DNA from: Bianqueaceae bacterium
GTDB lineage: Bacteria; Bacillota; Clostridia; Lachnospirales; Bianqueaceae
Direction of reading: 5' to 3'
Assembly: GCA_045631245.1 (NCBI GenBank)
Contig: JAZQUJ010000157.1
Coordinates: 1,207-65,206, forward strand
Length of the DNA stretch: 64,000 nucleotides
The notes beneath the pieces were generated by a model. The model was not told the DNA's origin, did no database searches, and worked only from the letters and a program-made list of their open reading frames with translations. A program made the position numbers and the translations under genes. Shown here piece by piece: positions 38,282 to 63,502 of this stretch (the stretch's first letter is position 1; each line of letters starts with the position of its first letter).

Positions 38282-38285
38282 TTAT

Positions 38286-45641: not shown

Positions 45642-45809
45642 GTTTGAGGGAAGTTTAGTTGCTTTAACATGATGAAGAATGTATAATATAAGAAAATAGT
45701 GAATAATAGAGGTCCGTCCCTTAACATATAAATGAAAATGTATAGTTTTTAAAGATTAGTAAAAAATTTTTGAGACAACGCTATTTTGTTTATTGGGAGG
45801 AGAACCTTT

Positions 45810-46128: not shown

Positions 46129-49128
46129 GTGAAGCATAATGAGAATTCAAGAGTAAAAATACCAGCACTTATTCACTTAACTCGCTTGGGCTATGAATAT
46201 CTTTCTCTCAAAGATTATCAGGGAGAAATCCATGTAGATACCAATATTTTCGTTGAAATTTTTCGCAACAGTGTTAGCCGCATCAACGGCAAAACTTTGT
46301 CTGAACATGATACTGCTGTGCTGATCTCTGAGTTGTCTGTTAAGCTCTCAAATGAGGATCTTGGTAAAGCGTTCTATAACATTTTGCACAACGGAATCAA
46401 TGGCCTTCGTCTGATTGATTTTGAGGACAGCTCTCGCAACACTTATCATGTTGTAACAGAACTGACATATCGGAATGGTGATGACGAATTCAGACCGGAT
46501 ATCATTCTGTTAATCAACGGTATGCCCCTGTCCTTTATTGAGGTTAAAAAGCCCAATAACAAAGACGGTATCATTGCAGAGCACAATCGCATTAATTCAC
46601 GTTTCTCAAGGAAGGTTTTCCGCCGTTTCGTCAATATTACGCAACTGATGGTATTCTCCAACAACATGGAGTATGACGAAGCGGATGTGGAGCCGATTGA
46701 GGGTGCTTTCTATGCGTCCAGCAGCTATGAGAAGCTGTTCTTCAACCGCTTCCGCGAGGAAGAGCCGGCAATCCATACTGCCATTCCCGCAATTGACGAT
46801 GCTAAGGCTGATTTCATCTTGAAAGACAACAATCTTGTGTCCATCAAAGGCACAAATGAATATAGTACCAATCTGAGCGAACTATCGCCCACTAACAGAA
46901 TTCTTACATCTTTATTTTCACATAAGCGATTCCTCTTGCTTTTGCGCTATGGCTTTGCCTACGTCGAACGCTCCGATAAAAATGGTATTAAAACGCTCCA
47001 GAAGCATGTCATGCGCTATCCGCAGTTTTTTGCCACTCTCGCTATTGAAAAGAAACTGAACGAAGGCGCACAACACGGTATCATTTGGCACACACAGGGC
47101 AGTGGTAAAACTGCGCTTGCGTTCCATAATATTCGCTATCTGCGCGATTACTACCAGAAGCAGGGGAAGATCGCCAGGTTTTACTTTATCGTTGACAGAC
47201 TTGATCTGCTGACACAAGCATCCGAAGAATTTACTGCTCGCGGACTCCATGTGGAGAAGGTCAATTCAAAAGAGGATTTCATCAAAAATATCCGTACCAT
47301 TGGTGCGGCAAACAACAGCGGCGAAGATTCCATTACTGTTGTAAACATTCAGAAGTTTTCAATGGAATCCATCGCTCGTAAAGCTGACTATGATGTCAAT
47401 GTTCAACGCGTTTACTTCATGGATGAAGCCCACCGCAGCTATAATCCTAAGGGTTCCTTCCTTGCAAATTTAATGGCATCTGACCGTGAGGCCGTTATGA
47501 TCGCTTTGACCGGCACCCCGCTGATAGGTGATGGCTATAACTCCAAAGATGTTTTCGGTGATTACATCCACAAATATTACTACAACCGTTCCATTGCGGA
47601 CGGCTACACCCTTAAGCTGATCCGCGAGGGCATCAAGACCGAATATCGTGCAAAGCTGCAATCTGTTTTGGACGAGCTGGAAACCCAGAAGGGCTCTTTT
47701 AAGAAGAAGGATGTTTATGCTCATCCTAAATATGTTGCTGCCTTAGTGGAGTATGTCGTTGATGATTTCAAGCGCAGTCGCATTGCACTGAACGACCAGT
47801 CCATCGGCGCTATGATTGTTTGCGACTCCTCCGATCAGGCGCGTATGGTTGAGGATGAGCTGAGCAACTATACTGATTTCAGCCATGTCCTCATTCTGCA
47901 CGACGTGGATGATAAGGAAACCCGCCGTGGCTATCAGGATGATTTCAAGAAGGGTAAGATAGACATTCTTGTGGTTTACAATATGCTCCTGACCGGCTTC
48001 GATGCTCCGCGTCTGAAAAAGCAGTATCTTGGACGCGTGATTCGAGAACACAATCTGCTGCAGACCCTCACTCGCGTCAACCGCCCCTATAAGTCTTTCC
48101 GCTATGGTTATGTGGTGGACTTTGCCGATATCCGTGCCGAATTTGATAAGACCAACGAAGCCTACTTCAAAGAATTGCAGGCTGAGCTGGGTGATGAATT
48201 TGAACGTTATCGCGACATCTTCAAATCTCAGGAAGAGATTGAACAGGACTTACAGGCCATTCAGGATAAGCTCTTTGTGTACGCAACGGACAACGCTGAG
48301 CTGTTCTCTCAGCAGATCACGGCTCTGGACGACAAGAAAGAGCTTCTGGATCTGCGCAGACTGCTTGATACCTACAAGGAACTGTTCAATATCATCAAGC
48401 TGTTCGGTTATGACGAGCTTGCCCAGCGCTTCAGCATGGACACGCTCCATGCCCTCTACAACGAGGTCAATAACCGTATCAATTTGGTCAACCTCAAAGA
48501 AAATCTCCAGAACAGCGAGGATGTTTCCGGTCTGCTGAATATGGCTCTGGATCAAGTGGAGTTCCATTTCCGCAAGGTATCCGAGGATGAAATGGTCATC
48601 GCGGATAAATTTCAGGATATTTTGGAAAAGACCCGTCGGGAACTGGAACGCAGCCTTGATCCCAAGGATCCCGAATACATCACTTTGCTGGATGAACTCA
48701 AGCGCATCTTCAAAAAGAAGAATATTGAAGAACTGACTGCCGATGAAATGAAGGCCAACATCGATGAACTTGAACGCATCCGCAAGGCTGCTGCGCAGCA
48801 AAACCTGCGTGATCAGATGCTTTGTGCCAAATATGGCAACGACGCAAAGTATATGCGTACTCACAAGCGGTTGAAAGAAGTACCGCCGCCCATCGGAAGC
48901 GATCCCATCATCTTTGGTATCCTCGTAGGTGTGAAAACCGAAGTCGATCAAAAAGTGCTGAAAAATCAGCGTATGATGGACAACCACGCCTATTTTACAC
49001 AGGAAATCATGCCCACGATTATTCAGTCGTGCCGCACTCACGGAGTACAGCCTACACTGGATCAGGTGCGCTATATTGACACCTGCATTTCCGGCGAATA
49101 CTTCGCAGAAAGGACTTGGACAGCATAA
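46129..49128 (+). CDS. hsdR: type I restriction enzyme, R subunit
   Basis: N-terminal nuclease region (IEVKKP), SF2 motifs TQGSGKT and MDEAHRS, and a long helical C-terminus. Confidence 0.9.
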   Translation: MKHNENSRVKIPALIHLTRLGYEYLSLKDYQGEIHVDTNIFVEIFRNSVSRINGKTLSEHDTAVLISELSVKLSNEDLGKAFYNILHNGINGLRLIDFEDSSRNTYHVVTELTYRNGDDEFRPDIILLINGMPLSFIEVKKPNNKDGIIAEHNRINSRFSRKVFRRFVNITQLMVFSNNMEYDEADVEPIEGAFYASSSYEKLFFNRFREEEPAIHTAIPAIDDAKADFILKDNNLVSIKGTNEYSTNLSELSPTNRILTSLFSHKRFLLLLRYGFAYVERSDKNGIKTLQKHVMRYPQFFATLAIEKKLNEGAQHGIIWHTQGSGKTALAFHNIRYLRDYYQKQGKIARFYFIVDRLDLLTQASEEFTARGLHVEKVNSKEDFIKNIRTIGAANNSGEDSITVVNIQKFSMESIARKADYDVNVQRVYFMDEAHRSYNPKGSFLANLMASDREAVMIALTGTPLIGDGYNSKDVFGDYIHKYYYNRSIADGYTLKLIREGIKTEYRAKLQSVLDELETQKGSFKKKDVYAHPKYVAALVEYVVDDFKRSRIALNDQSIGAMIVCDSSDQARMVEDELSNYTDFSHVLILHDVDDKETRRGYQDDFKKGKIDILVVYNMLLTGFDAPRLKKQYLGRVIREHNLLQTLTRVNRPYKSFRYGYVVDFADIRAEFDKTNEAYFKELQAELGDEFERYRDIFKSQEEIEQDLQAIQDKLFVYATDNAELFSQQITALDDKKELLDLRRLLDTYKELFNIIKLFGYDELAQRFSMDTLHALYNEVNNRINLVNLKENLQNSEDVSGLLNMALDQVEFHFRKVSEDEMVIADKFQDILEKTRRELERSLDPKDPEYITLLDELKRIFKKKNIEELTADEMKANIDELERIRKAAAQQNLRDQMLCAKYGNDAKYMRTHKRLKEVPPPIGSDPIIFGILVGVKTEVDQKVLKNQRMMDNHAYFTQEIMPTIIQSCRTHGVQPTLDQVRYIDTCISGEYFAERTWTA

Positions 49129-50789
49129 TGCAAATTGAAAATATTACCCTCAGAACAAAGCGAATGATCGACGACCTTAAGACCATCTGCGCCAACTTCG
49201 GCTTGGGTGGCTCTCCCGGCGAGTATAAGATCATCACGCAGGTGTTCCTGTATAAATACCTCAGTGACAAATTTCTCTATGAAGCAAAGAAAGCAGAGCC
49301 TACGCTTGCCAATGCAGAAAACATCGAGGAAGCGCTGTCTGCCATGCCGGATGATCAGTACGAAATGCTCGGCTATATGCTTGGCGGCAGTACGGCCAAG
49401 TTGAAAAAAACACACTATATTTCCTATCTGTTCAACCATCAGAATGATGAAACCATGCGTAAAGCAGACGGCAACATTTATCTCTTCCATGAGCTATTTG
49501 ATGATACGCTGGTGGATATCGCCAACCACAACCTTGATATTTTCTCGGTACAGACCGGTGGCGAAGAGAAGATTCGTCTGTTCGATCCGATTTCTCAGTA
49601 TGTCATTGAGAGCGTTAAGAAGCCTCCGTTCTGCCGCGCCATCATCAATAAACTGGTGGAGTTCAGCTTTGCCGATGTGTTTGAACAGAAGTATGATTTC
49701 TTTGCACAGATTTTCGAGTATCTGATCAAGGACTACAACAAGGACTTCGGTAAGTACGCCGAATACTATACCCCACACGCCATCGCAAACATTATCGCCC
49801 GTATTATGGTACAGGGCGATGTTAGCAATGTGTCCGTCTATGACCCCGCAGCCGGTTCCGGCACACTGGTATTGGCTCTGGCACACCAGATCGGTGAGGA
49901 TAACTGTACCATTTTCACGCAAGATATCTCTGCCAAATCCAACGAGTTCCTGCGCCTGAATCTGATTCTCAATAACCTTGTCCACTCTCTGGGCAATGTG
50001 GTGCATGATGATACGCTGATTGCGCCCCGCCACCTGAATGCCAAGAAAAACAGACTGGCACAGTTTGACTATATTGTCAGCAATCCGCCCTTCAACATGG
50101 ATTTCAGCGATAATCAACCGGAGCTGGCAAGTGATAAGCACAAGGAGCGCTTCTTCGCCGGTGCGCCCAGCATTCCGAAAAAGGACAAGGATGGCATGGC
50201 AATTTACCAGCTGTTCATCCAGCACATTCTGTACTCCCTTGCACCCAAGGGCAAAGCCGCTATCGTTGTACCCACCGGTTTTTTGACTGCCGGATCGGGC
50301 ATCCCCAAAAAGATCCGCGAGTATTTGGTAAAAAACCGGATGCTGCGTGGTGTGGTTTCCATGCCCTCCAATATCTTTGCTACCACCGGCACCAATGTTT
50401 CCATCCTGTTCCTTGACCGCGAAAACACCGATGGCAATGTGATTTTGATGGATGCGTCTAAACTTGGCACAAAGGTAAAACTGGACGGCAAGAATCAGCG
50501 CACCGTATTAAGTCCAGAAGAAATCGCGAAAATCATCGATACTTTCAACGCTGGAAAAGCCGAGGATGATTTCTGTGTGGCGGTCAGTTATTTGGATATC
50601 GAGGCAAAGAAGCTTTCCTTCTCCGCCGGTCAGTATTTCGAGGTCAAGATTGAATATGTGGAGCTGACACCTAAAGAATTTGCTGATAAGATGAACGGTT
50701 TTGCTTCCCAATTAGATGAACTGTTCGCAGAAAGCCGTCGTTTGGAGGATGAGATTAAGGTACAGTTGGGGCGGGTGAAATATGAGTAG
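49128..50789 (+). CDS. hsdM: type I restriction-modification N6-adenine methyltransferase subunit
   Basis: TAATG overlap with hsdR. Motif I DPAAGSGT and motif IV SNPPFN. Confidence 0.9.
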   Translation: MQIENITLRTKRMIDDLKTICANFGLGGSPGEYKIITQVFLYKYLSDKFLYEAKKAEPTLANAENIEEALSAMPDDQYEMLGYMLGGSTAKLKKTHYISYLFNHQNDETMRKADGNIYLFHELFDDTLVDIANHNLDIFSVQTGGEEKIRLFDPISQYVIESVKKPPFCRAIINKLVEFSFADVFEQKYDFFAQIFEYLIKDYNKDFGKYAEYYTPHAIANIIARIMVQGDVSNVSVYDPAAGSGTLVLALAHQIGEDNCTIFTQDISAKSNEFLRLNLILNNLVHSLGNVVHDDTLIAPRHLNAKKNRLAQFDYIVSNPPFNMDFSDNQPELASDKHKERFFAGAPSIPKKDKDGMAIYQLFIQHILYSLAPKGKAAIVVPTGFLTAGSGIPKKIREYLVKNRMLRGVVSMPSNIFATTGTNVSILFLDRENTDGNVILMDASKLGTKVKLDGKNQRTVLSPEEIAKIIDTFNAGKAEDDFCVAVSYLDIEAKKLSFSAGQYFEVKIEYVELTPKEFADKMNGFASQLDELFAESRRLEDEIKVQLGRVKYE

Positions 50790-51969
50790 ATATACAGCAA
50801 CACCTATTCGTGAAATTGGAACTGTTGTAACTGGAAAAACTCCCTCGACGTCTGAAAAGCACTACTATAATGGCGAATATATGTTTATTACGCCAGTTGA
50901 ATTACATGATGGATATAATGTTGCTTGTTCAGAAAAGACTCTTACTGAAGCTGGTTTGAAGAGCATATCGTCAAATTCTATTTGTGGCACAAGCGTGCTT
51001 GTTGGTTGCATTGGATGGGATATGGGAAATGTTGCAATGTGCCATAAAAAGTGTGCAACAAATCAACAAATAAACGCCATTACTAAATTTAAACCGCAGT
51101 ATAATCCGTATTACGTATACTACTGGTTATCTCAGAAAAAAGAATATTTGTTTTCTATAGCATCAGTAACAAGAACACCGATACTAAGCAAAGGGACTTT
51201 CGAAGAGGTCATCATTCCGATACCATCAAAGGATATACAGGATTCAGTTGTAGATGTCTTGAAACCATTTGATGAGAGAATTGTAATTAACAAGCGTATC
51301 TGCGCCGAACTGGAAGCTATGGCAAAAACGCTATATGACTACTGGTTTACGCAGTTTGATTTCCCGAATGCGGATGGGAAACCCTATCGTTCTTCCGGAG
51401 GCGAAATGGTCTGGAATGACCAACTCAAGCGCGAAATCCCGAAGGGGTGGGAAGTAGATATCATTGGAAATATCCTGTCAAAAATTCCAAATACAACACG
51501 AATTCAAACAAGTGAATACTTGAGTGATGGTAATATTCCTGTCATTGATCAAAGCGCAGATTATATTGCCGGGTATACAAACGAAACAGATGCTTTGTTG
51601 TCATCGCCTACGGGTTATGTTGTCTTTGGAGATCATACCCGTATTGTAAAATATATTCGTTTCCCGTTTGCGCGTGGAGCAGATGGAACACAAATCCTGA
51701 AATCCAACACGCTACGCGTCCCTGATGAGCTCTTATATCAAATTGTCCAGAGCGTGGATTTATCCAATTATGGCTATGCAAGGCATTTCAAGTTCTTGAA
51801 GGATACGCTGACAGTAATCCCAGATGAAATGGTTGCAAAAAAGTATGTCGAAATAGTAACGCCAATATTCGATAAGCAAGTTCAATTGACATTTGAAAAT
51901 ATTGAACTCACAAAACTTCGTGATTGGCTGCTTCCCATGCTCATGAACGGACAAGCCACAGTAGAATGA
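50782..51969 (+). CDS. hsdS: type I restriction-modification specificity subunit
   Basis: Overlaps hsdM. Two target-recognition halves are separated by conserved helices (LEAMAKTLYDYWF, LRDWLLPMLMNGQ). Confidence 0.85.
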   Translation: MSRYTATPIREIGTVVTGKTPSTSEKHYYNGEYMFITPVELHDGYNVACSEKTLTEAGLKSISSNSICGTSVLVGCIGWDMGNVAMCHKKCATNQQINAITKFKPQYNPYYVYYWLSQKKEYLFSIASVTRTPILSKGTFEEVIIPIPSKDIQDSVVDVLKPFDERIVINKRICAELEAMAKTLYDYWFTQFDFPNADGKPYRSSGGEMVWNDQLKREIPKGWEVDIIGNILSKIPNTTRIQTSEYLSDGNIPVIDQSADYIAGYTNETDALLSSPTGYVVFGDHTRIVKYIRFPFARGADGTQILKSNTLRVPDELLYQIVQSVDLSNYGYARHFKFLKDTLTVIPDEMVAKKYVEIVTPIFDKQVQLTFENIELTKLRDWLLPMLMNGQATVE

Positions 51970-51980: not shown

Positions 51981-52718
51981 ATGCAATTACTGAAATTTAT
52001 GGAATCTGTAGATCTTGCAGCTAAGCAGGAAACAGAGCGTGCAAAGCTGCTCTGTTTCTACCATTACAAAGAGGACGGAGAAACTACTTTTACAATGGCG
52101 ACCATTTCTCTTTGGCTGGAAGAATGCAATTTCAGTAAGCCAAATGCATCTCGCCTAAAGGAGCATTTGATCAAAGGAAAAGCCAAATCTTTCCTGGCAT
52201 CAAAGACTGTCAAAGGAGCCATTGAGTTTGTTCCCGCTGTTCTTCAGGCGATGGAGCGTGACTACGGCGCTTTGTGGGCAGATACCGTGACCATTGAGTC
52301 TCATGATGAACTGATTGAGGAAGCAAAGTTCTGCGGAAAACGTGTGTTTCTGACGCGGCTGATTCAGCAAATCAATTTTACATATGGAAACAACTGCTTC
52401 GATGCCTGCGCTGTTCTAATGCGCAGACTTTTTGAAGTGCTTCTGGTCTTAGCGTATCAAAACAAAGGCATTGAAGCGGATATTACCAAACCAGATGGCA
52501 GTCACAAAATGTTGGAAGGTATTGTAAAAGATGCCGTGCAGAATAAGACGCTTGGAGTTCCTGCGAGAATTTCCAAAAACTTCGATGCATTCCGCGAAGT
52601 GGGCAACAATTCTGCGCACAGCATTACTTATACCGCGGGAAAGCTCGATATTGACAATATCGCCCGAGATTACCGCGTCATGCTGGAAGATTTATATAAC
52701 CGAGCCGGTTTGATGTAA
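51981..52718 (+). CDS. DUF4145-like protein
   Basis: C-terminal pattern AVLMRRLFEVLL...FREVGNNSAHS resembles the DUF4145 signature that is often embedded in type I R-M loci. Confidence 0.55.
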   Translation: MQLLKFMESVDLAAKQETERAKLLCFYHYKEDGETTFTMATISLWLEECNFSKPNASRLKEHLIKGKAKSFLASKTVKGAIEFVPAVLQAMERDYGALWADTVTIESHDELIEEAKFCGKRVFLTRLIQQINFTYGNNCFDACAVLMRRLFEVLLVLAYQNKGIEADITKPDGSHKMLEGIVKDAVQNKTLGVPARISKNFDAFREVGNNSAHSITYTAGKLDIDNIARDYRVMLEDLYNRAGLM

Positions 52719-52732
52719 GGAGGATTGAACAA

Positions 52733-53689
52733 GTGAGCGAAGTCTTAAAACTGAAATATAAAGTGGGCAAAATTGAATTTGAGGCAGAAGGACCTGCCGA
52801 TGCAGTTGAGCAGCAGCGCGTCAATTTCATGAACTCAGTGTTGCCCGCTGCTGTTGAAGCGATGGTAAGAACGCAGACCGTTGTCGAGCGGCAGCCGTAT
52901 ATCGAGTCTGCGGCACAACCGGCACTGCTTGAGGCGGGTGTATCTGATGTGCCTATGACGACTCCCCATCAAACAGAAAATGTTTTTTCTCGAACAAGTC
53001 TGTCTTCCTTTTTGAAGAAATACGGAGCGCTTAGTGAACAAGATTTCACTTTGTTTGCTGCATTTTTTGATGAACAGAAAAACGGGAAAAAGTCTTTTTC
53101 GATTGACGATGTGAAACGTTATTATGCGGAAGCACGACGAACGATGCCTAAAAATCCGAGCATGTCAACATTTCGGCTTGCAGAAAAGGGATACATTATG
53201 GATGCCCCTAAGCCTGAAGATGTGAAAAACGGGAATTACTATATGCTAACCACCGATGGCATTGCGTATATCGAATCTTATGTTCCAAAAGAGGATTTGG
53301 GTGAAAAGAAGCCTCGTGCTAAAGCGAAAAAATCTGTGCCGAAGATTTCCGAAGCTTATGCATCTATTAACGCTGACGATCTAAATACTAAGAATTATCC
53401 AGCAGTTAAGTCTCTATCAGGAGCCAAAGAACAGGTCATCATGGCAATGTATATTGTTGTCAATGAAGGAAAAGGAGAATGGTTTACTGTTGAGGATGTT
53501 ATCCATTTGCTTGTCAATGTTTTTGAAGTACCCGCAAATACAGATATGGTAAATGGGGTATTCAAGAGAAACAAGAGTATGTTTGCGACAGAAAAAGATC
53601 CTGCTAATCCTAAGGCGTTTCGCAAAAAACTTCTCTCTGGCGCCAAGGATTTTGCTGTGGGGATCATTGAAAATAGAAAGGCAGAATAA
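52733..53689 (+). CDS. hypothetical protein (318 aa)
   Basis: GTG start follows AGGAGG. No motif recognised. The central linker is K-rich. Confidence 0.6.
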   Translation: MSEVLKLKYKVGKIEFEAEGPADAVEQQRVNFMNSVLPAAVEAMVRTQTVVERQPYIESAAQPALLEAGVSDVPMTTPHQTENVFSRTSLSSFLKKYGALSEQDFTLFAAFFDEQKNGKKSFSIDDVKRYYAEARRTMPKNPSMSTFRLAEKGYIMDAPKPEDVKNGNYYMLTTDGIAYIESYVPKEDLGEKKPRAKAKKSVPKISEAYASINADDLNTKNYPAVKSLSGAKEQVIMAMYIVVNEGKGEWFTVEDVIHLLVNVFEVPANTDMVNGVFKRNKSMFATEKDPANPKAFRKKLLSGAKDFAVGIIENRKAE

Positions 53690-53753
53690 AACTGTAGCCT
53701 GCCAGCGCACTTGCTACAGGTATATTGACGCCGCACGAAAAGGAGTGCCTATT

Positions 53754-56700
53754 ATGTTACACCACGGTCTTTATGAACAAGTAATCAATAGTCAGCTGAG
53801 CAGCGAGCTTTCGGAGATTTCTGAAGCCCGCAAGGCTGTTGCGCCCATCGATAAGGCAGAAGCATCCAAGGTGCTGGCGCAGTATTTGGCTGACGTGGTT
53901 CAAAAGGGCCTGGATAACGTGGTTGATAATGGCGGGGATATCTCTGCCCAACTCGCTCTGACCAATCAGATTGTTGACCTTATTCAAAACACTACAAGAG
54001 AAGCTGACTTTGCCATGCTGGGTGTTGACCAGCGCGCAGCGCAGCTTCTTGCTCTTTTGAGAGAAACAGATCCTCGACTTGCGGTGGGTAAAACGGCGGC
54101 AGATTTGAGTCGTCCGGAAACCTCTATTGCACAAAGTTCTTTATTTACTGGCGCAATTCATGAACCCCAAATGTACACTGAGCTGAAAAAGGAAATCGTA
54201 TCCGCAGATCGTATTGACATGCTAGTTTCCTTTATCAAGTGGAGTGGTCTGCGTCTCCTGATGGACGAGCTTCGCGAGTTTACCATGAACGGTGGCGAGT
54301 TGCGTATCATCACCACTTCCTATATGGGTGCTACTGATGTGAAAGCAATTGAAGAGCTGCGACAGCTGCCCAATACCACCATCAAAGTAAGTTACGATAC
54401 TAAGCGCACCCGCCTTCACGCGAAGACCTATGTTTTCTGCCGTAACACTGGCTTCACTACTGCCTATGTTGGCTCTTCCAACCTTTCCAATGCCGCTATT
54501 TCCAGTGGATTGGAGTGGAACGTGAAGGTTACAAAGAAGGACCTTCCTGAGACCATCGATAAGATCGCGGCGACCTTCGAAAGTTACTGGAATTCCAATG
54601 AATTTGAGTATTACTCTGAGGATCAAAAGGAGCGCTTAGCACGCGCCTTGAAGGCGGAGAAATACATAGACGGCAACAATCCTGAAGTCTACACCATGGA
54701 TATCATGCCATATTCCTATCAGCAGGAGATTCTGGATAAGCTGGAAGCAGAACGCAAGGTGCGTGGCTATAACCGCAACCTGGTTGTTGCGGCAACCGGT
54801 ACCGGTAAAACGGTTATCTCTGCACTGGATTATAAACGCTTCCGTAAGCAAAATCCGGGAAAGCCCTGTCGTTTGCTGTTTGTGGCACATCGTGAAGAGA
54901 TTCTGAAACAAAGCTTATACACTTTCCGTGCGGTTTTGAAGGATGCAAACTTTGGTGAGATGTTTGTCGGCAACTACAAGCCAGACAGCATTGAAAATCT
55001 CTTTATTTCTATTCAGACCTTTAACTCCCAGGATTTTACCGCAAAGACGGCGCCTGATTTCTATGACTATATCATCGTGGACGAGTTCCATCATGCTGCG
55101 GCACCTACATACCAGAAGCTCTTGGCGTATTATCAGCCGCAGATTCTGCTCGGATTGACGGCCACCCCGGAACGTATGGACGGTAAGAGCATTCTGCCGT
55201 ACTTCAACAATCGTATTGCGGCGGAGATTCGTTTGCCTGAAGCTATTGATCGTAAGCTGTTGTGCCCGTTCCAGTATTTCGGCGTTACCGATACTGTTGA
55301 TCTGGATACGCTCAAATGGAGTGCTGGAGGTTACGACAAAGGTGAGCTGACTAAGGTTTACACATTCAGCGGCGCAATGGCCAACCGTCGTGCTGACCTT
55401 GTCGTGAGTTCTTTGTTGAAATATGTGACCGACATCAACGATGTTAAGGGTCTCGGCTTCTGTGTCTCCATTGAGCATGCGGAGTTTATGTGTCGCTATT
55501 TCAATGAGCACAATATTCCATCTATGTTCCTGACCGGACATTCTCCTGATGAGGAAAGAAAAAATGCCAAGCAGCGTTTGGTTGCGGGCGAAGTACGCTT
55601 TATCTTTGTTGTAGATATCTATAACGAGGGCGTTGATATTCCTGAGGTCAACACCGTTCTTTTCCTGCGTCCAACAGAGTCCCTGACCATATTCTTGCAG
55701 CAGTTAGGCCGTGGCTTGCGTTTGGCTGAAGATAAAGAATGCCTAACTGTTTTGGACTTTATCGGTCAGGCAAATAAAAAATATAACTTTGAAGATAAGT
55801 TTGCGGCGCTGCTGAGTAACACCACGCGCAGTGTAACCCGCGAAATTAAGGATGGTTTTGTTTCTGTGCCGAAGGGTTGCTATATTCAGCTGGAAAAGAA
55901 AGCTGCTAAATATATTCTTGATAACATCCGAGCTTCCTATGGTAATACGGCAGGCTTGGTATCCCGTGTTGCCACCTTTGAAGAGGATAGCGGATTAGAG
56001 CTTACTCTGAAGAATTTCCTGGATTATTATCATCTGGACACGAGAGCAATCTATAAGTTTACATCATTCTCTCGTCTTTGTGCCAGAGCAGATGTCATCA
56101 AGGATTTCGAGGAACCGCTAGAAGAAACGATCACCAAGGCCTTTGCACGTCTTGCTGTGATCGACTCCAGACGTTGGATATCCTTCTTACTAGATATTCT
56201 TCCTCGCCTGGATAATGTAAATTTTGCCGCTTTGAGCGATGTTGAAAAGCGCATGCTTCAGATGTTCTATATTACTGTATGGGGTAAGAGTGCGGGTTCC
56301 TGGGATAACGAAGAGGTACTGGACAACCTCTATGCGCTGTCCGATAGCACGACACTGATGGGTGAGCTAATAAGTCTGCTTCAATATCGGTATGAACAGA
56401 TTGATTTTATTGATGAACCTGTTGACTTGGGTTTTGATTGTCCGTTGGATCTACATTGCACATATACCCGTGATCAGTTGTTGGTAGCTATGGATTTTAT
56501 GAAGCCGGCTACTGTGCGTGAGGGCGTGAAGTGGTTACCGGATAAGCAAATTGATGTACTGTTTGTGACGCTGAATAAATCTGATAAGGACTACTCTCCG
56601 ACCACTATGTATCATGACTACTCAATCAATGAAAACTTGTTCCATTGGCAGAGTCAGAGTACAACCAATGATACCGGTTCTGTTGGACAGCGTTATATTC

Positions 56701-56909
56701 ATCATAAAGAACGTGGTAGCAAAGTTCTGTTTTTTGTCCGTGAGTATAAAGCGGATCGGATCACGAATGGTGCTGAAGCCTACACCTATCTGGGAACAGC
56801 AAACTACGTGCAGCATCAGGGATTTAGACCGATGAATATCACATGGCGCTTGGATCGACCGATTCCGGCGAAGTTTTTGAAAAAGACAAATAAGTTGGTG
56901 GTGGGATAA
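53754..56909 (+). CDS. PLD-nuclease / SF2 helicase / DUF3427 fusion protein
   Basis: ATG at 53754 follows AAAGGAG. HKD-like motif RLHAKTYVF...VGSSNLS. Helicase motifs AATGTGKT, VDEFHH, LTATPER and QQLGRGLR. DUF3427-like tail (FHWQSQSTT...NITWRLDRPIP). Confidence 0.85.
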   Translation: MLHHGLYEQVINSQLSSELSEISEARKAVAPIDKAEASKVLAQYLADVVQKGLDNVVDNGGDISAQLALTNQIVDLIQNTTREADFAMLGVDQRAAQLLALLRETDPRLAVGKTAADLSRPETSIAQSSLFTGAIHEPQMYTELKKEIVSADRIDMLVSFIKWSGLRLLMDELREFTMNGGELRIITTSYMGATDVKAIEELRQLPNTTIKVSYDTKRTRLHAKTYVFCRNTGFTTAYVGSSNLSNAAISSGLEWNVKVTKKDLPETIDKIAATFESYWNSNEFEYYSEDQKERLARALKAEKYIDGNNPEVYTMDIMPYSYQQEILDKLEAERKVRGYNRNLVVAATGTGKTVISALDYKRFRKQNPGKPCRLLFVAHREEILKQSLYTFRAVLKDANFGEMFVGNYKPDSIENLFISIQTFNSQDFTAKTAPDFYDYIIVDEFHHAAAPTYQKLLAYYQPQILLGLTATPERMDGKSILPYFNNRIAAEIRLPEAIDRKLLCPFQYFGVTDTVDLDTLKWSAGGYDKGELTKVYTFSGAMANRRADLVVSSLLKYVTDINDVKGLGFCVSIEHAEFMCRYFNEHNIPSMFLTGHSPDEERKNAKQRLVAGEVRFIFVVDIYNEGVDIPEVNTVLFLRPTESLTIFLQQLGRGLRLAEDKECLTVLDFIGQANKKYNFEDKFAALLSNTTRSVTREIKDGFVSVPKGCYIQLEKKAAKYILDNIRASYGNTAGLVSRVATFEEDSGLELTLKNFLDYYHLDTRAIYKFTSFSRLCARADVIKDFEEPLEETITKAFARLAVIDSRRWISFLLDILPRLDNVNFAALSDVEKRMLQMFYITVWGKSAGSWDNEEVLDNLYALSDSTTLMGELISLLQYRYEQIDFIDEPVDLGFDCPLDLHCTYTRDQLLVAMDFMKPATVREGVKWLPDKQIDVLFVTLNKSDKDYSPTTMYHDYSINENLFHWQSQSTTNDTGSVGQRYIHHKERGSKVLFFVREYKADRITNGAEAYTYLGTANYVQHQGFRPMNITWRLDRPIPAKFLKKTNKLVVG

Positions 56910-58168
56910 TGGAAAACAAAGTGATTAATGAATTCATTAAAGAATTTTACGACGAAGTAGATTTATACGAAAAAGTTAAAAGAAATGTACATAAGTTGCT
57001 CGAAACAAAATTAAATGATTCGGGTGTTATGGCATTAGTTACTTCAAGAGTAAAAGATCCTGGAAGGTTAAAAGAGAAACTCATTGATAGAAATAATGAG
57101 AAAAAATACAAAAACAAGGAAGATATATATTTTGACATTGTCGATCTTATTGGACTACGAGTGGCGCTATATTTCCCCAATGATGTTGGACGAGTAGAGT
57201 CTTTGATAAAGAATAGCTTTTCTGTAACAAAGATTAAAACTTTCCCCGAAGATAGAAAAGGCAATGATGTATATACCAATAGGTTTGAAGGGTACAGTGC
57301 AAGGCATTACCGTATTGAGTATGAGCATGAGGGGAGATTATACAAGGTAGAGATACAAGTGGCTTCTTTGCTTATGCATGCTTGGGCGGAGGTGGAGCAT
57401 GATTTAGCGTATAAACAAAAGAAAGGTAAAGTTTCTTTTGATGAATATGAGGCATTGGACGAAATTAATGGTTTGGTTATAGCTGGAGAAATATCTTTGC
57501 AACGCCTACAGCGTCTTTCTGAATTAAGAATGGCCTCTGAAAAAGAAACGTTTTTAAATCATTATCAACTCGCAGATTACATTTATAAATTTGCTGAGAA
57601 AACTGTGCCTGACAGCGAAATGGTTCTTGGTGATGTCGAGACACTGTTTAAAGTATTACAGAGGCAGAACAGATTAACAAAAAAGAAAGTCGATAATGAT
57701 TTGGGGAAGCTCCAACTTAGTTCATCAAGTGGCGCTATTGCTGATCAAATAATGGATCTATACTCTTTGGATAATCGCAAAGAAAGTATTGAAATTATAA
57801 AAATTAGAGCAAGTAAAGATCCGTTGAACGAAAATCATATCAATGAGGTTTGTATTGGAAAATTTCTTACAGAGTGGATTAAGTTGGAACGCATGTTGGA
57901 AGATTTTGCATGCCGTTTTGGTTTTTCAAATTTACCCAAAAACAGAGATGCAATGTCAAGACTGTTAAGATGTATAGATGTGCCCAACAGCACAAGGGAA
58001 GTGTATTGGCATTTGAAAAAAATAAGAAACCTGTTAGTGCATGGAGTGGAAATACCAGAAGATCGTGAGCTGTTACTATATGTGGAGGAAATAAAGGACG
58101 TGAAAAAGGAAATTGAATCTTTTTTTGATAGCATAACAGGAGATGAAAACAGTGGCCAAAAGTTTTAA
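56909..58168 (+). CDS. RelA/SpoT-homologue (small alarmone-synthetase/toxSAS-like) nucleotide pyrophosphokinase with C-terminal HEPN-like region
   Basis: TAATG overlap with the helicase gene. Synthetase-fold motifs SRVKDPGRLKEKL, DLIGLRVALYF, GYSARHY and VEIQVASLLMHAWAEVEHDLAYK. C-terminal KKIRNLLVHG carries an R-x4-H motif. Confidence 0.8.
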   Translation: MENKVINEFIKEFYDEVDLYEKVKRNVHKLLETKLNDSGVMALVTSRVKDPGRLKEKLIDRNNEKKYKNKEDIYFDIVDLIGLRVALYFPNDVGRVESLIKNSFSVTKIKTFPEDRKGNDVYTNRFEGYSARHYRIEYEHEGRLYKVEIQVASLLMHAWAEVEHDLAYKQKKGKVSFDEYEALDEINGLVIAGEISLQRLQRLSELRMASEKETFLNHYQLADYIYKFAEKTVPDSEMVLGDVETLFKVLQRQNRLTKKKVDNDLGKLQLSSSSGAIADQIMDLYSLDNRKESIEIIKIRASKDPLNENHINEVCIGKFLTEWIKLERMLEDFACRFGFSNLPKNRDAMSRLLRCIDVPNSTREVYWHLKKIRNLLVHGVEIPEDRELLLYVEEIKDVKKEIESFFDSITGDENSGQKF

Positions 58169-58991
58169 TATGTCCAGCTTTAAATCTCAACTTAGACAAG
58201 CTCAGCGAAAAGCTGAACGAGATATGAAAAGTGAGATTAACAAGGCAACAAGAAAATTTGAGAGTGAAATGAACCGCGAGCTACGGAAATATAATACGAA
58301 AGTGCAACATAATCGAAATACAATCGCACGTGAGCTAAGTAGATTGCAATCTCACACGACAGTAAAAAGTGCTTACGCCATTTCGCTTAGTACCATGCAT
58401 CGGTATTATACTGATATTGATAGTATATATGGGGATTGTGTCGTAACTCCGCAGCAAGAGCATATTTTTGATTTGGTAGAACAAGAGCAGGTTAATAGTC
58501 TAATTACTGCTAACGCTATTCAAAATGATCAGTTTTCAGACGAAAATATTGAGGATATTGAAATAGGAAATAAACTTTTGAATGTATCTGAGGACCTCAA
58601 TAATCGTTGGCGAGGGGCTGTTTTTGCGATGAGTCCGCAAAATCCTGATGCAGCACGACATTTCTGCACCAGTGCGCGAGAGATATTCACAGAATTTATT
58701 GAGTTAAAGGCACCAGATTCTAACGTGTTTGTCTTTAATCCGGACTGCGAAAAGACGGACAGAGGCAATGCTACAAGAAGAGAAAAAATCAAATATATGA
58801 TGAGGAATATAGATATTCATAGCAGCATTATTGATTTTGCTGAGGCTGATATCACCAATATTCTTGAATTGTTCCATGTTTTGAGTGATGGAACTCATGG
58901 AGCTGCAGGTCGATATGAGTTTCAGAAATTGGTTCAAGTGAAAAAGCGCGTTGAGCAAGGGATAAACTTTTTGTGTGAAATTTCTGCATGA
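58143..58991 (+). CDS. hypothetical protein (282 aa; basic coiled-coil N-terminus, helical C-terminal domain)
   Basis: Overlaps the RSH gene by 26 nt. An alternative ATG at 58170 lies 1 nt after the RSH stop. No motif recognised. Confidence 0.65.
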   Translation: MKTVAKSFNMSSFKSQLRQAQRKAERDMKSEINKATRKFESEMNRELRKYNTKVQHNRNTIARELSRLQSHTTVKSAYAISLSTMHRYYTDIDSIYGDCVVTPQQEHIFDLVEQEQVNSLITANAIQNDQFSDENIEDIEIGNKLLNVSEDLNNRWRGAVFAMSPQNPDAARHFCTSAREIFTEFIELKAPDSNVFVFNPDCEKTDRGNATRREKIKYMMRNIDIHSSIIDFAEADITNILELFHVLSDGTHGAAGRYEFQKLVQVKKRVEQGINFLCEISA

Positions 58992-59043
58992 TTATCAAAA
59001 ACTCTATTTGCAATTCAATAATAAGTACGAATATTGGATTAAC

Positions 59044-59272: not shown

Positions 59273-59598
59273 TGAGCTAGTAGTCCAGACTTTGAGAGCC
59301 ACCATTCCGGTGTTTGGAGCCAGCATTCCGGTAACAGAAAATCGCTATTCCGGTCATGAGAAAACATGATTCTGTTCCGGTGGAAATCATTTCATAGATT
59401 CCTTTATAAGTTCGTATGCCATTCGGTGTAAATTGTAGTCCATATTCAATTCGATCACAGCAGTAGCCATCGTCTTCTTTGTGCCCACGGCGCATCCTGT
59501 ATCTTCCGTCTATATCGTGTATACGCCATCTTAAATATGCCTGACGAATTGACGTGAATCCGAAAAGTAAGTACAATAAGCACGGGGGGAGTGATATT

Positions 59599-60096
59599 AT
59601 GAGTAGCATTAAGACATATACTGGCGTGATGTTCGATCCGGTGCATCCGGAATTGGAACGGATCGATATTTTGGATATTGCGCACGCGCTGAGTATGCTG
59701 TGCCGGGCGAATGGGCATTTTAGGAGCTTTTATTCGGTGGGCCAGCACTGTATCAATTGCGCCCGGGAGGCGAAGGCGAGAGGATATTCGGAGCGGGTGC
59801 AGCTGGCGTGTTTGCTGCACGATGCCAGCGAGGCGTATCTGTCGGATGTGACCCGGCCGGTGAAACAGGAACTGCCGAAGTATCTGGAGATTGAGGAACC
59901 GCTGCAGGAGGCGATCTGGCGGAAGTATTTGGGGGCGGAATTGACGGAGGAAGAGAAGGTTCGGGTGTTTGAGATTGATGATGCGATGCTTTACTATGAG
60001 TTTAAGGCGTTGATGGGGATCCGATTGTCGGGGACTATGGAGAGTTATAGGGTGTGTGTGGATAGGAAGGAATATTTGAAAAAATTGAAGAAGTAA
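59599..60096 (+). CDS. HD-domain phosphohydrolase (chimeric 3' end)
   Basis: ATG follows GGGGGAG. HD motif LACLLHDASEAYLSD. The last 18 or so codons derive from the alkylation-repair gene 3' remnant (ESYRV...KKLKK). Confidence 0.7.
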   Translation: MSSIKTYTGVMFDPVHPELERIDILDIAHALSMLCRANGHFRSFYSVGQHCINCAREAKARGYSERVQLACLLHDASEAYLSDVTRPVKQELPKYLEIEEPLQEAIWRKYLGAELTEEEKVRVFEIDDAMLYYEFKALMGIRLSGTMESYRVCVDRKEYLKKLKK

Positions 60097-60250
60097 TTTT
60101 GGTATAAGAAATGCAGTTATTGGAGATTGTAGGTTTTCAATAACTGCAAATTTTTACGAAAATTTGACATTTATGTTAAGTTGGGGGGAATGTTTGGTTG
60201 AAGAAGGTGAGCGAAAGCAGTATAATAATTTATAAGAAAAGTCCGTCCCC
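60039..60250 (+). repeat. third copy of the alkylation-repair 3' remnant, terminator and downstream module (direct repeat of 45480-45720)
   Basis: Shared strings: GGAGAGTTATAG, TATTTGAAAAAATTGAAGAAGTAATTTTGGTATAAGAAA, ACATTTATGTTAAGTT and GTCCGTCCC. Confidence 0.8.
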
Positions 60251-60251: not shown

Positions 60252-60886
60252 GCTGTATGAGGTAAGAGTGCAGATTCCTGAAATGATGAAGAGGTCTGGA
60301 CAACCTCTATGCGCTGTCGGATAGCACGATACTGATAGGTGAGTTAATTCATCTACTCCAATATCGTTATGAACAGATTGACTTTATTGATGAGCCTGGT
60401 GATTTGGGGTTTGATTGCCCGTTGGATCTGTATTGCACATATACCCGTGATCAGCTGCTGGTAGCTATGGACTTCATGAAGCCGGCTACTGTGCGTGAAG
60501 GCGTAAAATGGTTGCCGGACAAGCAGATTGATGTTCTGTTCGTGACGCTGAACAAATCTGATAAGGATTACTCTCCGACAACTATGTATCACGACTACTC
60601 GATCAATGAATGCTTATTTCACTGGCAGAGTCAGAGTACAACCAATGATACCGGTTCTGTTGGACAGCGCTATATTCATCATAAAGAACGTGGTAGTAAG
60701 GTTCTGTTCTTTGTCCGCGAGTTTAAGGCGGATCGTATCACAAATGGTGCTGGAGCCTATACCTACCTCGGAACAGCAAACTACGTTCAGCATCAGGGAT
60801 CTAGACCGATGAATCTCACATGGCGCTTGGATCGACCGATTCCGGCGCGGTTTTTGAAGAAGACAAATAAATTGGTTGTGGGGTGA
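60252..60886 (+). pseudogene. decayed duplicate of the 3' end (DUF3427 region) of the helicase gene
   Basis: Aligns with 56275-56909 at roughly 90 percent identity by eye. A 1-nt deletion lies near 60285. Only the last 160 codons remain open. Confidence 0.85.
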
Positions 60887-61030
60887 GGTTAAAAGTAATC
60901 GTTGTCTCGAGAGCTTATTTATTTGTTTATTGCAGGTTATAATAAAAACTTGACAAATATGTTATAATTATACTACACAAGAGAATATTATATATGAATG
61001 AGTTTGTGTGTAGATTGTGAGGAAAAGAAA

Positions 61031-61465
61031 ATGTATAGAGCATTAAGTGTTGCTCGTTATATCATCGAAAGATGTCATTCAAAGAATCGTAGTATTAGTA
61101 ACTTGAAATTACAAAAAATATTGTATTTTGTTCAGGCGGAATTTTTGGTGTCAAGAGGGCACCCCTGTTTTGCTGAGCAAATAGAAGCGTGGGATTTTGG
61201 GCCAGTAGTGCCAGAGGTATATCAAAAATATAAAATTTTTGGAAGTTCCAATATTCCTGTTTTTGGAAGACCTACTAATGCTGTGGTTATTCGTAATGAT
61301 GATCAAGAAATAATTAATGATATTGTTGATGAGTGTGCCAGATATTCTGCATCTGCACTAGTTGATATTACGCATCACCAATTGCCTTGGCTTGATGCAT
61401 ATGTTCCAGGATATAATAATGTGATTTCTCAAAGTAGTATAAAAAATTATTTTACCGAGGGATAA
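61031..61465 (+). CDS. Panacea/DUF4065 (SocA/GepA-like) domain protein, candidate antitoxin
   Basis: ATG follows GAGGAA. LSVARYIIERC...SNLKLQKILYFVQAEFL...EAWDFGPVVPEVY pattern. Confidence 0.65.
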   Translation: MYRALSVARYIIERCHSKNRSISNLKLQKILYFVQAEFLVSRGHPCFAEQIEAWDFGPVVPEVYQKYKIFGSSNIPVFGRPTNAVVIRNDDQEIINDIVDECARYSASALVDITHHQLPWLDAYVPGYNNVISQSSIKNYFTEG

Positions 61466-61468
61466 AGC

Positions 61469-62464
61469 ATGCCAAATCTGAAAATTAACATAAACAAGAC
61501 GACAGGAAATGTACAATTTAATTTTGATGATAAAGACCTTACAGAAGAAATGAATGAAAAAGTTCAGGCATTATGCAAGGCTCTTTTAACGGATAATAAT
61601 AATTTTAAAAAGGATGCGGTTTTTCAAGATATTTATAAATATATAAGCAACTATGACCGAATCTTATATGCTCCTATCAGTAATATGATTTATGCATGCT
61701 ATAATGATCATACGGCAGAAGAAGCAACTAATATTATGGGAACGATTAACTCCAATATCATTGCTGTAGTAAATTATTCTCAGGGTAAAGAAGTTAATGA
61801 GTTTATTACAAAAGCTCGGGGTGAAAATAAGAAACACTTGCAGGATACTAAAAAAGTAATTCTGAAAATTTGGGATCATATAAATTTGGCACATCAACAA
61901 TATAGCGCTTTGAAACAGAGTGATGCTGAATATGAAGAAAAGTTCAATAAAAAAATGCGTCCGATTAAGGATGAGCTTTCGAAAGACCTAAGTCAGCAGT
62001 TGCTTACTATGGTAAGTATTTTCACAGCACTTGCATTTTTGATTTTTGGTGGTATTAGTTCACTTGACAATATTTTTGCAAACCAGGGAATATCAGTATT
62101 AAAAATTATGATTGTGGGTTCTATATGGGGATTATGCATCTTGAATTTGATTTTTGTTTTTTTGTTCTGTGTTAGCAAGATGACGAAATTAAAAATTGTA
62201 TCTACAAGTGAGCCCAATGCTACAATATTTCAAAAATATCCTATCGTATGGTGGGGAAATCTTGTGATTGTTTCCATAATGCTATTGAGTATGTGGGGAT
62301 ATTACATAACAAAGAGAAATATTCATACATGGTTTGATCAGATCTGTTTTAAAAATCCGGTGTTGGCAACGATATTAGGTACAGGATTAATTCTAATAAT
62401 TATCATCGCCATCACTTGTAAACTAATTAAAGCAACAAAACGTACAAATGGGGCGGATGAATAG
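61469..62464 (+). CDS. hypothetical protein: soluble N-terminal half plus 4 C-terminal TM helices (candidate toxin partner)
   Basis: 3-nt gap after the Panacea-like gene and a GAGGGA RBS. TM segments lie from about aa 185 to 320. Confidence 0.65.
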   Translation: MPNLKININKTTGNVQFNFDDKDLTEEMNEKVQALCKALLTDNNNFKKDAVFQDIYKYISNYDRILYAPISNMIYACYNDHTAEEATNIMGTINSNIIAVVNYSQGKEVNEFITKARGENKKHLQDTKKVILKIWDHINLAHQQYSALKQSDAEYEEKFNKKMRPIKDELSKDLSQQLLTMVSIFTALAFLIFGGISSLDNIFANQGISVLKIMIVGSIWGLCILNLIFVFLFCVSKMTKLKIVSTSEPNATIFQKYPIVWWGNLVIVSIMLLSMWGYYITKRNIHTWFDQICFKNPVLATILGTGLILIIIIAITCKLIKATKRTNGADE

Positions 62465-62971
62465 AGGACTCGATAGGGTTCTCTTTTTATTTACGCAGGA
62501 AGAGTTTTGTGTTCTACCATTAATCAATATAGGTTTGGTAGCCTAAAATCATATTTGCGTTATTTTTCATGGTGAAGATCAAAAGCTTTATTAACTTCAT
62601 CTTCAAGCAAAAGGATAGTCATTTTTCTTGTTTTATTTTTTAATAAATTTTCTTCTTCTTTTTACCAGTTATTTGTACTAAATTATCAATGGTCAATTTT
62701 GATGGATGCCGTTGTGTATTACCAGAGATGCCAACATGACGCGAGGAACTGCAGAAGAGCGTTGAAGGGCCAGCGGCTTTCTTCTTACATTTCTGGAACA
62801 TTATTTTGGCTCCAACTCTAACCGAAATACTCGGTCAGGGCTGGAGCCATCGTCATCTTTGCGCCTACGGCGCGGGGGATCTTTGGCTGTGGAGTGGATC
62901 TGTGGTCTAAATATGGAGGATGAATTGACGGGAGCCGAAAAGGGCAGTACAATAGGTATGGGGGTGATAGT

Positions 62972-63502
62972 ATGAGTAGTATTAAGACTTTTACCGGCGT
63001 GATGTTCGATCCGGTGCATCCGGAAGCGGAACGGATCGATATTTTGGATATTGCGCATGCGCTGAGTATGCTGTGCCGGGCGAATGGGCATTTTAGAAGT
63101 TTTTATTCGGTGGGCCAGCACTGTATCAATTGCGCCCGGGAGGCGAAGGCGAGAGGATATTCGGAGCGGGTGCAGCTGGCGTGTTTGCTGCACGATGCCA
63201 GCGAGGCGTATCTGTCGGATGTGACGCGGCCGGTGAAACAGGAACTGCCAAAGTATCTGGAGATTGAGGAACCGCTGCAGGAGGCGATCTGGCGGAAGTA
63301 TTTGGGGGCGGAATTGACGGAGGAAGAGAAGGTTCGGGTGTTTGAGGTTGATGATGCGATGCTTTACTATGAGTTTAAGGTGTTGATGGATACCCGATTG
63401 GCAGAGGAGGAGCCGGAACTGAAGAGTGAGCCGGAGTTTGGGTTTCGGGGATTTGAGGAAGTAGAGGAAGGGTTTTTGAGGGTGTTTCATTCTTATATTT
63501 GA
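62972..63502 (+). CDS. HD-domain phosphohydrolase (intact paralogue)
   Basis: Near-identical to 59599-60020 and then keeps its own C-terminus. LLHDASEAYLSD motif. Confidence 0.75.
   Translation: MSSIKTFTGVMFDPVHPEAERIDILDIAHALSMLCRANGHFRSFYSVGQHCINCAREAKARGYSERVQLACLLHDASEAYLSDVTRPVKQELPKYLEIEEPLQEAIWRKYLGAELTEEEKVRVFEVDDAMLYYEFKVLMDTRLAEEEPELKSEPEFGFRGFEEVEEGFLRVFHSYI

Follow-up and report, generated by a model that had tools for sequence, protein, structure and literature searches.

Three probably autonomous gene modules, one encoding a predicted RelA/SpoT-HEPN fusion protein, in a defence island of a Bianqueaceae bacterium

We analysed a 64,000-nucleotide (nt) stretch of the genome of a Bianqueaceae bacterium (contig JAZQUJ010000157.1 of assembly GCA_045631245.1), referred to below as the window, and focused on a 5.2-kb block of three open reading frames (ORFs), genes 1 to 3. 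The locus is a defence island, and the block follows a type I restriction-modification (R-M) system. From its sequence it had been proposed to encode a single undescribed defence system, in which a helicase-nuclease is coupled to a RelA/SpoT-like enzyme and a third protein. We describe here the predicted products of the three genes, the neighbourhoods in which their relatives occur and the breakpoints of DNA homology around them, and we suggest that the block is probably a stack of three autonomous single-gene modules in the defence cargo of a mobile element, and not one three-part system.

Three tightly packed genes and their predicted products

The layout given in the original prediction was confirmed. 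All three ORFs are co-directional at the coordinates listed in Table 1, the TAATG at 56907-56911 contains both the stop of gene 1 and the start of gene 2, and the end of gene 2 overlaps the start of gene 3 by 17-26 nt, depending on which gene 3 start is used; the type I R-M operon upstream is likewise present. The true start of gene 3 is probably the GTG, which leaves a 17-nt overlap with gene 2, since an AGGAG lies 9 nt upstream of it and gene 3 homologues mostly begin MAKSFNMS. The description of the block as an AT-rich island held for genes 2 and 3 (34.8% and 38.1% GC) but not for gene 1, which at 46.1% is like the backbone. The low GC of gene 2 suggests that it was acquired horizontally. 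A megablast search of E. coli genomes with the three-gene block gave no match.

Homology places gene 1 among the type IV restriction enzymes of the SauUSI family, which are modification-dependent and ATP-dependent; it is thus of an already known type. The combination of an HKD-type nuclease motif (HAK...GSSN), a superfamily 2 (SF2) helicase core and a DUF3427 tail that had been read from its sequence is borne out by Pfam matches to PLDc_2 (E=2e-12), RE_NgoFVII (E=4e-9), ResIII (E=6e-37), Helicase_C (E=2.5e-13) and DUF3427 (E=7e-24). The PADLOC model mREase_IV (PDLC03659) matches residues 117-1041 at E=1.7e-227, over profile positions 13-935 of 945, and the structure of SauUSI from Staphylococcus aureus (PDB 7CLG) matches residues 147-1021 at E=4.3e-83. 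The HAK...GSSN motif aligns with that of SauUSI, and all helicase motifs, seen in the translation as GTGKT, DEFHH, TATPER and QQLGRGLR, align with 7CLG. The full-length order of SauUSI, from an N-terminal phospholipase D-like (PLD) nuclease through an SF2 ATPase to a DUF3427 recognition domain at the C-terminus, is thus shared by gene 1, which differs from SauUSI in about 100 extra N-terminal residues, in its divergent sequence and in that its relatives usually have a NUDIX gene next downstream. SauUSI, expressed from one cloned gene and purified, is reported to cleave 5-methylcytosine (5mC) and 5-hydroxymethylcytosine DNA as a single protein in vitro (PMC3141236, PMC7913695). By homology, the DUF3427 domain of gene 1 would recognise DNA carrying either modified base, its SF2 motor would translocate using ATP, and the PLD domains of a dimer would cut the DNA; gene 1 would need no partner protein.

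The RelA/SpoT pyrophosphokinase site of gene 2 is, by alignment, intact. The match to Pfam RelA_SpoT (PF04607) scores 58.6 bits against a cut-off of 27 (E=8.7e-16), and after the pyrophosphokinase domain, at about residues 46-172, come a long helix, a middle domain made of helices and, at the C-terminus, a HEPN-like domain. Against the PDB, gene 2 matches RelQ/RelP-type small alarmone synthetases (E=7e-10 with the single sequence and 5e-12 with a profile), and its active-site motifs (RxK, DxxDxxGxR, GYxxxH, EIQ and HxW..E.EH..YK) align with those of the RelQ/RelP structures. In a 27-sequence alignment, residues R47, K49, D79, G82, R84, Y129, H133, E148, Q150, H157, E161, E163, H164, D165 and K169 are all invariant. 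Each motif of the RelA/SpoT homologue (RSH) signature quoted in the original prediction is therefore present and conserved; the catalytic role of these residues is assigned from the literature. A look-up of the exact gene 2 protein returned no record.

The R-x4-H (Rx4H) motif that had been recognised in the C-terminal extension of gene 2 is invariant at both of its defining positions in the same alignment (Table 1), and it is also kept in distant family members. When 26 C-terminal regions of the family were compared with Pfam, the sole recurring matches were to HEPN families: RiboL-PSP in 6, HepT-like in 5 (best E=5.4e-6), Cthe2314 in 3, HepT-like_2 in 2 and DUF4145 in 2. Precomputed Pfam matches to HepT-like are also found on four full-length homologues, and the PADLOC model CARF_HEPN gives weak, domain-level matches to the window protein (E=1.6e-4) and to the homologue P0023 (E=1.9e-6). 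An AlphaFold2 model of the C-terminal 244 residues is all-helical (predicted local distance difference test score, pLDDT, of 86) and places the Rx4H motif at the end of helix 185-202 of the fragment; its weak Foldseek matches are to the HepT/HEPN toxins 7ae8, 6m6u and 1wwp, with target TM-scores of 0.41-0.49 and E>2. Our reading of gene 2 is a RelA/SpoT pyrophosphokinase joined in one protein to a HEPN RNase-like domain, in which the Rx4H catalytic pair appears to be kept. Two results limit the HEPN assignment: the C-terminus of the window protein itself has no Pfam match at E<=0.1, and its model has no significant Foldseek match in the PDB. For the window protein the assignment rests on the motif, on weak profile matches and on matches of homologues, which are convergent but individually weak. 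The C-terminal module forms 1161 representative clusters at 50% identity and is essentially always fused to an RSH domain. Stand-alone modules, which would have suggested a split toxin-antitoxin ancestor, were considered and rejected: the five short matches that were read all begin inside the RSH domain and are therefore N-terminally truncated gene calls.

Gene 3 had been reported to carry no recognisable motif, which does not hold. Its residues 148-277 match essentially the whole of Pfam PF18165 (pP_pnuc_1, predicted pPIWI-associating nuclease) at E=3e-35 and 121 bits (cut-off 26.3), over profile positions 4-133 of 133. It differs from that model in adding a 60-residue N-terminal helix, and no PIWI or Argonaute gene was called in the window or in loci L087-L093 and L190-L193. 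We read gene 3 as a coiled-coil protein with a predicted pP_pnuc_1 nuclease domain, from a family that is named but uncharacterised. Its 956 homologues are about 280 aa long each and share the conserved motifs DAARHFCTSAREIFTEF and GTHG; conserved residues include RH (172-173) and THG (251-253). PADLOC returns a weak match to Aga_Nuclease, and a search of the literature on pP_pnuc_1 and PF18165, within a limited searchable library, found no description of gene 3. The AlphaFold2 model of gene 3 is all-helical (pLDDT 82), and no match in the PDB was found by sequence search. The structural comparison suggested for gene 3 and the gene 2 C-terminus thus yielded an all-helical model for each, but no significant PDB fold match for either. 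A second HEPN domain in gene 3 was also considered and rejected, hhalign giving a probability of 1% for its alignment with the HEPN region of gene 2.

Table 1. Features of the block and its surroundings, in window coordinates
Feature	Position	Strand	Remarks
HTH_26 gene (upstream cargo)	45786-46025	+	Pfam HTH_26
Type I R-M genes hsdR, hsdM, hsdS	46129-51969	+	NCBIfam hsdR, hsdM
DUF4145 HEPN-clan gene	51981-52718	+	Pfam DUF4145
318-aa gene	52733-53689	+	no family match
Gene 1	53754-56909	+	1051 aa; AAGGAG upstream of ATG
Direct repeat R1 copy A, 3' end of gene 1	56275-56905	+	89% identical over 631 bp to 60253-60882
Gene 2	56909-58168	+	419 aa
Gene 2 Rx4H motif, codons of R373-N-L-L-V-H378	58025-58042	+	R373 and H378 invariant, N374 at least 90% conserved (27 sequences)
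Gene 3	58152-58991	+	279 aa from GTG 58152 (or 282 aa from first ATG 58143)
HD-domain dNMP phosphatase-like gene, copy 1	59554-60096	+	phrog_318, E=1.9e-46; right flank of cassette 1
Direct repeat R1 copy B, truncated second SauUSI-type gene	60253-60886	+	DUF3427 C-terminus, E=1.5e-23
Cassette 2, Panacea-domain antitoxin and 331-aa protein	60998-62464	+	SocA_Panacea, E=7e-19
HD-domain gene, copy 2	62972-63502	+	92% aa identity to copy 1; right flank of cassette 2

Neighbourhoods of relatives and boundaries of the modules

The original prediction treated the three genes as one coupled system and named beforehand their conservation as neighbours as the point to be checked; outside one close relative (L087) no such conservation was found across diverged genomes. 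We retrieved 166 loci by gene 2 homology, most of them distant (33-47% identity) and many on short contigs, and searched them with a hidden Markov model for gene 3 and with phmmer for gene 1. Of these loci, 128 extend at least 1 kb downstream of gene 2, and no gene 3 homologue was found in any of them; 91 extend at least 3.3 kb upstream, and none of these has a SauUSI-type gene. At 76% identity or less, relatives of gene 2 adjoin neither gene 1 nor gene 3. The view from gene 1 is the same. Among 13 IMG/VR loci with gene 1 relatives, the downstream sequence reaches at least 1 kb in 10 (60-85% aa identity), and neither gene 2 nor gene 3 follows in any of these 10. A NUDIX gene comes directly after the gene 1 relative in 8 of them, 4 times with the identical TAATG overlap. 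Since the same junction joins gene 1 to NUDIX, the overlap between genes 1 and 2 is not specific to the RSH gene. Past the NUDIX gene stand a peptide deformylase gene and varied defence cargo, including Schlafen with Dam and a HerA-like gene, HEPN_Swt1-SNF2, PRTase-CE with a reverse transcriptase, and helicases.

The NUDIX gene that follows the SauUSI-type relatives (L178-L187) may be a real pairing, for instance as a 5-methyl-dCTP sanitiser against the cell's own m5C-dependent nuclease; the window has no NUDIX gene. A NUDIX protein as partner of gene 2, after which it is found in L094, L095 and L174, was rejected, since eight loci have it behind gene 1 with no gene 2 present, and the window lacks it.

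The same modularity is visible in the DNA itself, where homology breakpoints coincide with the ends of the genes. DNA homology of gene 1 with L177-L185 starts at 53738-53753 and ends at 56909-56913; that of gene 2 with L174, L094 and L176 covers about 56909-58141 only, and that of gene 3 with L088 covers 58135-58989 only. Gene 3 relatives stand in other company: at 84% identity (L088) after a peptide deformylase gene and without gene 2, at 67-72% in the order TnpV, gene 3, DUF234 ATPase, and at 63% (L190, positions 2364-9890, and L191) within a type I R-M operon ordered hsdM, hsdS, 70-aa ORF, GNAT-like gene, gene 3, hsdR.

Two direct repeats place the block in a larger arrangement. Copy B of the first repeat, R1, has 94% aa identity to gene 1 residues 856-1051 (tblastn, blastn); the second, R2, pairs 59451-60027 with 62831-63400 at about 89% nt identity and covers the HD-domain gene. 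Together R1 and R2 bracket genes 2 and 3 once, and once a PanA-type antitoxin gene with a 331-aa protein gene; these pairs are therefore alternative cargo of the same slot, and the repeats form a tandem pair of two versions of one cargo slot. In cassette 2 the Panacea-domain antitoxin gene (60998-61465, 155 aa) is followed 4 nt later by the 331-aa gene (phrog_5763), the C-terminal half of whose product is strongly hydrophobic, and the GC is 32-34% versus 45-52% in the flanks; the cassette is probably a PanA-type toxin-antitoxin pair. The claim that no antitoxin stands next to the RSH gene is correct for its immediate neighbours, but this Panacea-domain gene lies nearby, paired with its own downstream gene.

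A homologue of the HTH_26 gene is found directly upstream of gene 1 in L179 and first in the cargo of L081, and this shared position points to a common element backbone with variable cargo. We propose that recombination brought genes 1-3 together, one behind the other, in the variable region of a phage-like or integrative element that holds its defence cargo. Several further features of the surroundings may be mentioned. The DUF4145 gene and the 318-aa gene (51981-53689) may form an accessory pair linked to the type I R-M operon, which they follow. At 37754-39446 lie an HTH_3 gene and, overlapping it, a gene of 401 aa that matches the HipA_C kinase domain (29.8 bits, just below the cut-off of 30.5), a candidate HipBA-like toxin-antitoxin. 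At 41830-43113, on the left edge of the island, a 427-aa DUF6161 protein is encoded within the most AT-rich part of the window (GC ~32%).

The gene 2 family and known systems

The gene 2 family is the novel part of the locus: it occurs widely, PADLOC does not classify it, and no conserved partner goes with it. We counted 2134 homologues in a clustered protein database, nearly all about 400-450 aa long, and relatives in 461 species-level genomes of Firmicutes, Actinobacteria, Proteobacteria, Acidobacteria and Planctomycetes. A plasmid tblastn search with gene 2 gave one full-length match and otherwise generic RSH domains, and viral-contig scans with gene 2 and gene 3 gave nothing, only the scan with gene 1 being productive. 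The expectation that PADLOC would leave the block unclassified was right for gene 2 as a family but wrong for gene 1, given its mREase_IV match: PADLOC v2 has no model for the gene 2 family, its only matches being weak, domain-level ones to PDC-S33 and CARF_HEPN. No description of a RelA/SpoT and HEPN fusion was found in the literature, in a limited searchable library, so that its absence is not proven.

No partner emerged from the neighbours of gene 2. A conserved adjacent antitoxin gene of the kind seen with toxSAS toxins (background in PMC7229694) would appear as a recurrent neighbour, and the 166 loci have none. At 80 genome loci, the only recurrent clusters among the immediate neighbours are housekeeping genes of a single clade, and the nearest neighbours of a subset of loci (120 proteins) match 151 Pfam families, none of which occurs in more than 5 proteins. 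A 662-aa and a 388-aa protein, neighbours in about 12 distant loci, were considered as partners and rejected as conserved chromosomal synteny of one clade; from their sequences the former reads as a beta-lactamase-like membrane protein and the latter as malic enzyme. Among closer relatives the context is equally varied. At 84% identity (L176), the gene 1 C-terminus and the TAATG are kept and gene 2 is followed by a serine recombinase. At 76%, L174 has the order Dcm methylase, gene 2, degenerate NUDIX, helicase, and L094 has gene 2 followed by NUDIX, as does L095 at 63%. At 72% (L081), gene 2 stands between an HpaII R-M/Dcm methylase and Hachiman; at 66% and 65% it precedes a KAP NTPase, and at 60% it follows an SF2 helicase of 858 aa. 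Since the partner upstream of gene 2 changes, operon piggy-backing is a better description than specific interaction.

Relatives at 63-76% identity lie directly after a C5 cytosine DNA methylase gene (L081, 4521-6777; L174, 2-1811; and the upstream ends of L094 and L095, where the visible part of the upstream gene is its last few codons). With the window clade of gene 2 behind a methylcytosine-dependent nuclease and its relatives behind a methylase, a 5mC theme may be seen, which may be coincidental. Two distant family members, P0369 (604 aa) and P0247 (535 aa), have extra C-terminal domains; that of P0369 reads by eye as a GGDEF diguanylate cyclase (GGDEIG motif) and may point to second-messenger signalling in some family members.

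Set beside known systems, gene 2 brings together two familiar elements, a small alarmone synthetase or toxSAS and a HEPN domain, in a so far undescribed form. CapRel(SJ46) is a fused toxSAS toxin-antitoxin with a C-terminal pseudo-zinc-finger antitoxin domain. Gene 2 shares with it an organisation in one polypeptide, in which a small-alarmone-synthetase-like RSH domain at the N-terminus is joined to a C-terminal domain; gene 2 also lacks a conserved antitoxin neighbour and, in the window clade, lies in mobile defence cargo. Its C-terminus differs, however, being a helical region plus a HEPN-like domain with Rx4H and no pseudo-zinc-finger, and its PDB profile matches at E<=0.01 are all GTP pyrophosphokinases (YjbM/RelQ, YwaC/RelP and unnamed relatives), none of them CapRel. 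MntA-HepT resembles gene 2 in having a polymerase-beta-fold nucleotidyltransferase 5' of an Rx4H HEPN RNase, and some gene 2 homologues match Pfam HepT-like; the weak Foldseek matches of the C-terminal model are HepT structures. In gene 2, by contrast, the two parts are fused in one chain instead of split over two genes, the transferase is a RelA/SpoT-type pyrophosphokinase and not an adenylyltransferase, and the Tyr of the HepT modification site Rx4HxY is absent (RNLLVHGVE).

HEPN genes linked to R-M systems (PrrC-EcoprrI, DUF4145; PMC3710099) provide a further parallel: gene 2 of the close clade lies directly behind R-M-type genes, and the type I R-M operon of the window also ends with a DUF4145 gene. 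The upstream partner of gene 2 varies, however (Dcm methylase, SauUSI, SF2 helicase), and the wider family lacks R-M linkage. That 2013 survey of HEPN proteins (Anantharaman et al., PMC3710099) does not describe an RSH-HEPN fusion, since the words RelA, SpoT and ppGpp are absent from it. The PDC-S33 family shares with gene 2 a RelA/SpoT-like domain (E=3.5e-7, profile positions 45-175 of 349). This is a domain-level match only, and nine gene 2 family members, some of them from Streptomyces, score only 17.8-26.2 bits; because the matches are weak and domain-level, gene 2 is not a member of PDC-S33.

Possible functions and alternative explanations

Since both catalytic sites are intact and no partner was found, we infer that gene 2 acts as an auto-inhibited growth-arrest or abortive-infection effector. 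Restraint by its own C-terminal domain, as proposed originally, is plausible. When triggered, its RSH domain would use ATP to pyrophosphorylate a purine nucleotide or the 3' end of tRNA, and the HEPN domain would cleave RNA, either instead of this reaction or together with it; such activities would presumably be toxic to the cell and might confer a defence phenotype. We can only tentatively advance, as a possibility with the balance against it, that the family is a new self-contained effector class with an active RelA/SpoT-fold pyrophosphokinase and an active HEPN RNase in one polypeptide. If this were true, the nucleotide signal or tRNA modification made by the RSH domain could, for example, gate or complement the protein's own RNase, as a one-protein analogue of OAS-RNase L or MntA-HepT logic.

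Gene 2 might instead be a regulated alarmone or second-messenger signalling enzyme whose HEPN-like domain is regulatory or RNA-binding, and no toxin or defence effector at all. Its RSH domain is closest to the housekeeping RelQ and RelP, distant family members sit among housekeeping genes without an antitoxin, GGDEF genes account for 4 of the 120 neighbour proteins in addition to the GGDEF-like fusion read by eye in P0369, and HEPN domains are often non-catalytic in nucleotidyltransferase-HEPN fusions (PMC3710099). However, the Rx4H pair is invariant across the gene 2 family, unlike in inactive fused HEPN domains; the window clade lies in mobile-element defence cargo, beside R-M systems, Hachiman and KAP NTPase; and the low GC of gene 2 points to horizontal acquisition. 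On balance we regard a purely signalling role of gene 2 as unlikely; in the wider family a regulatory or signalling role may apply.

The reading of the block as three separate modules has to be weighed against several observations that point the other way. No terminator-like site was found between genes 1, 2 and 3, the only 17-pair terminator-like hairpin with a T-run being at 60112-60148, beyond the first copy of the HD-domain gene, and for this reason co-transcription of the three genes is plausible and indeed probable. The trio recurs once, in the close relative L087, at 85% DNA identity over window positions 53753-59001, with sharp ends and unrelated flanks, and the junction of genes 1 and 2 with its TAATG is also present in L176; within one narrow clade the genes thus travel together and could have gained a functional link. 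The retrieved gene 2 loci are mostly distant relatives, as noted above, and within the close clade (at least 60% identity) 8 of the 9 contexts place gene 2 directly after an R-M-type gene (Dcm methylase, SauUSI or SF2 helicase), which could mean more than co-location.

These observations would fit a clade-restricted cooperative system, or a two-gene version of it, in which the SauUSI-like enzyme, as a sensor or processor of foreign DNA, would control the RSH-HEPN effector, with gene 3 as a modulator. Such a system would also agree with both gene overlaps and with the frequent functional ties of HEPN genes to R-M systems, for which PrrC-EcoprrI is a precedent (PMC3710099). We nevertheless find it very improbable. 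None of the ten gene 1 relatives at 60-85% identity is accompanied by gene 2, relatives of gene 2 at 76% or less have a Dcm methylase or other genes before them instead of gene 1, the TAATG also couples gene 1 to the NUDIX gene, and even the 84%-identical gene 2 of L176 is without gene 3. GC and homology breakpoints show separate origins, and purified SauUSI is reported to cleave modified DNA in vitro as a single protein (PMC3141236).

Equally hard to sustain is a toxin-antitoxin-like cassette of genes 2 and 3, one neutralising the other, that was inserted as a unit downstream of gene 1: the two are both low in GC, overlap, are kept together in L087 and fill the slot held by the PanA antitoxin and its partner in the paralogous repeat unit, but gene 3 is missing downstream of gene 2 in all 128 informative loci, L176 has gene 2 (84%) without gene 3 and L088 has gene 3 (84%) without gene 2, their homology breakpoints are separate (at about 58135-58141), and gene 3 elsewhere lies beside a DUF234 ATPase or type I R-M genes.

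Three separate modules therefore remain our preferred reading of the block, and with it a false lead is removed: tight packing and start/stop overlaps in defence islands do not alone prove one system. The cassette slot between the SauUSI-type gene and the conserved HD-domain gene could be mined for further cargo. Gene 2 is the single gene of the locus worth pursuing. It could show a new link of alarmone-type chemistry to RNA cleavage, or it may prove to be a new toxin that, in the manner of CapRel, is auto-inhibited.

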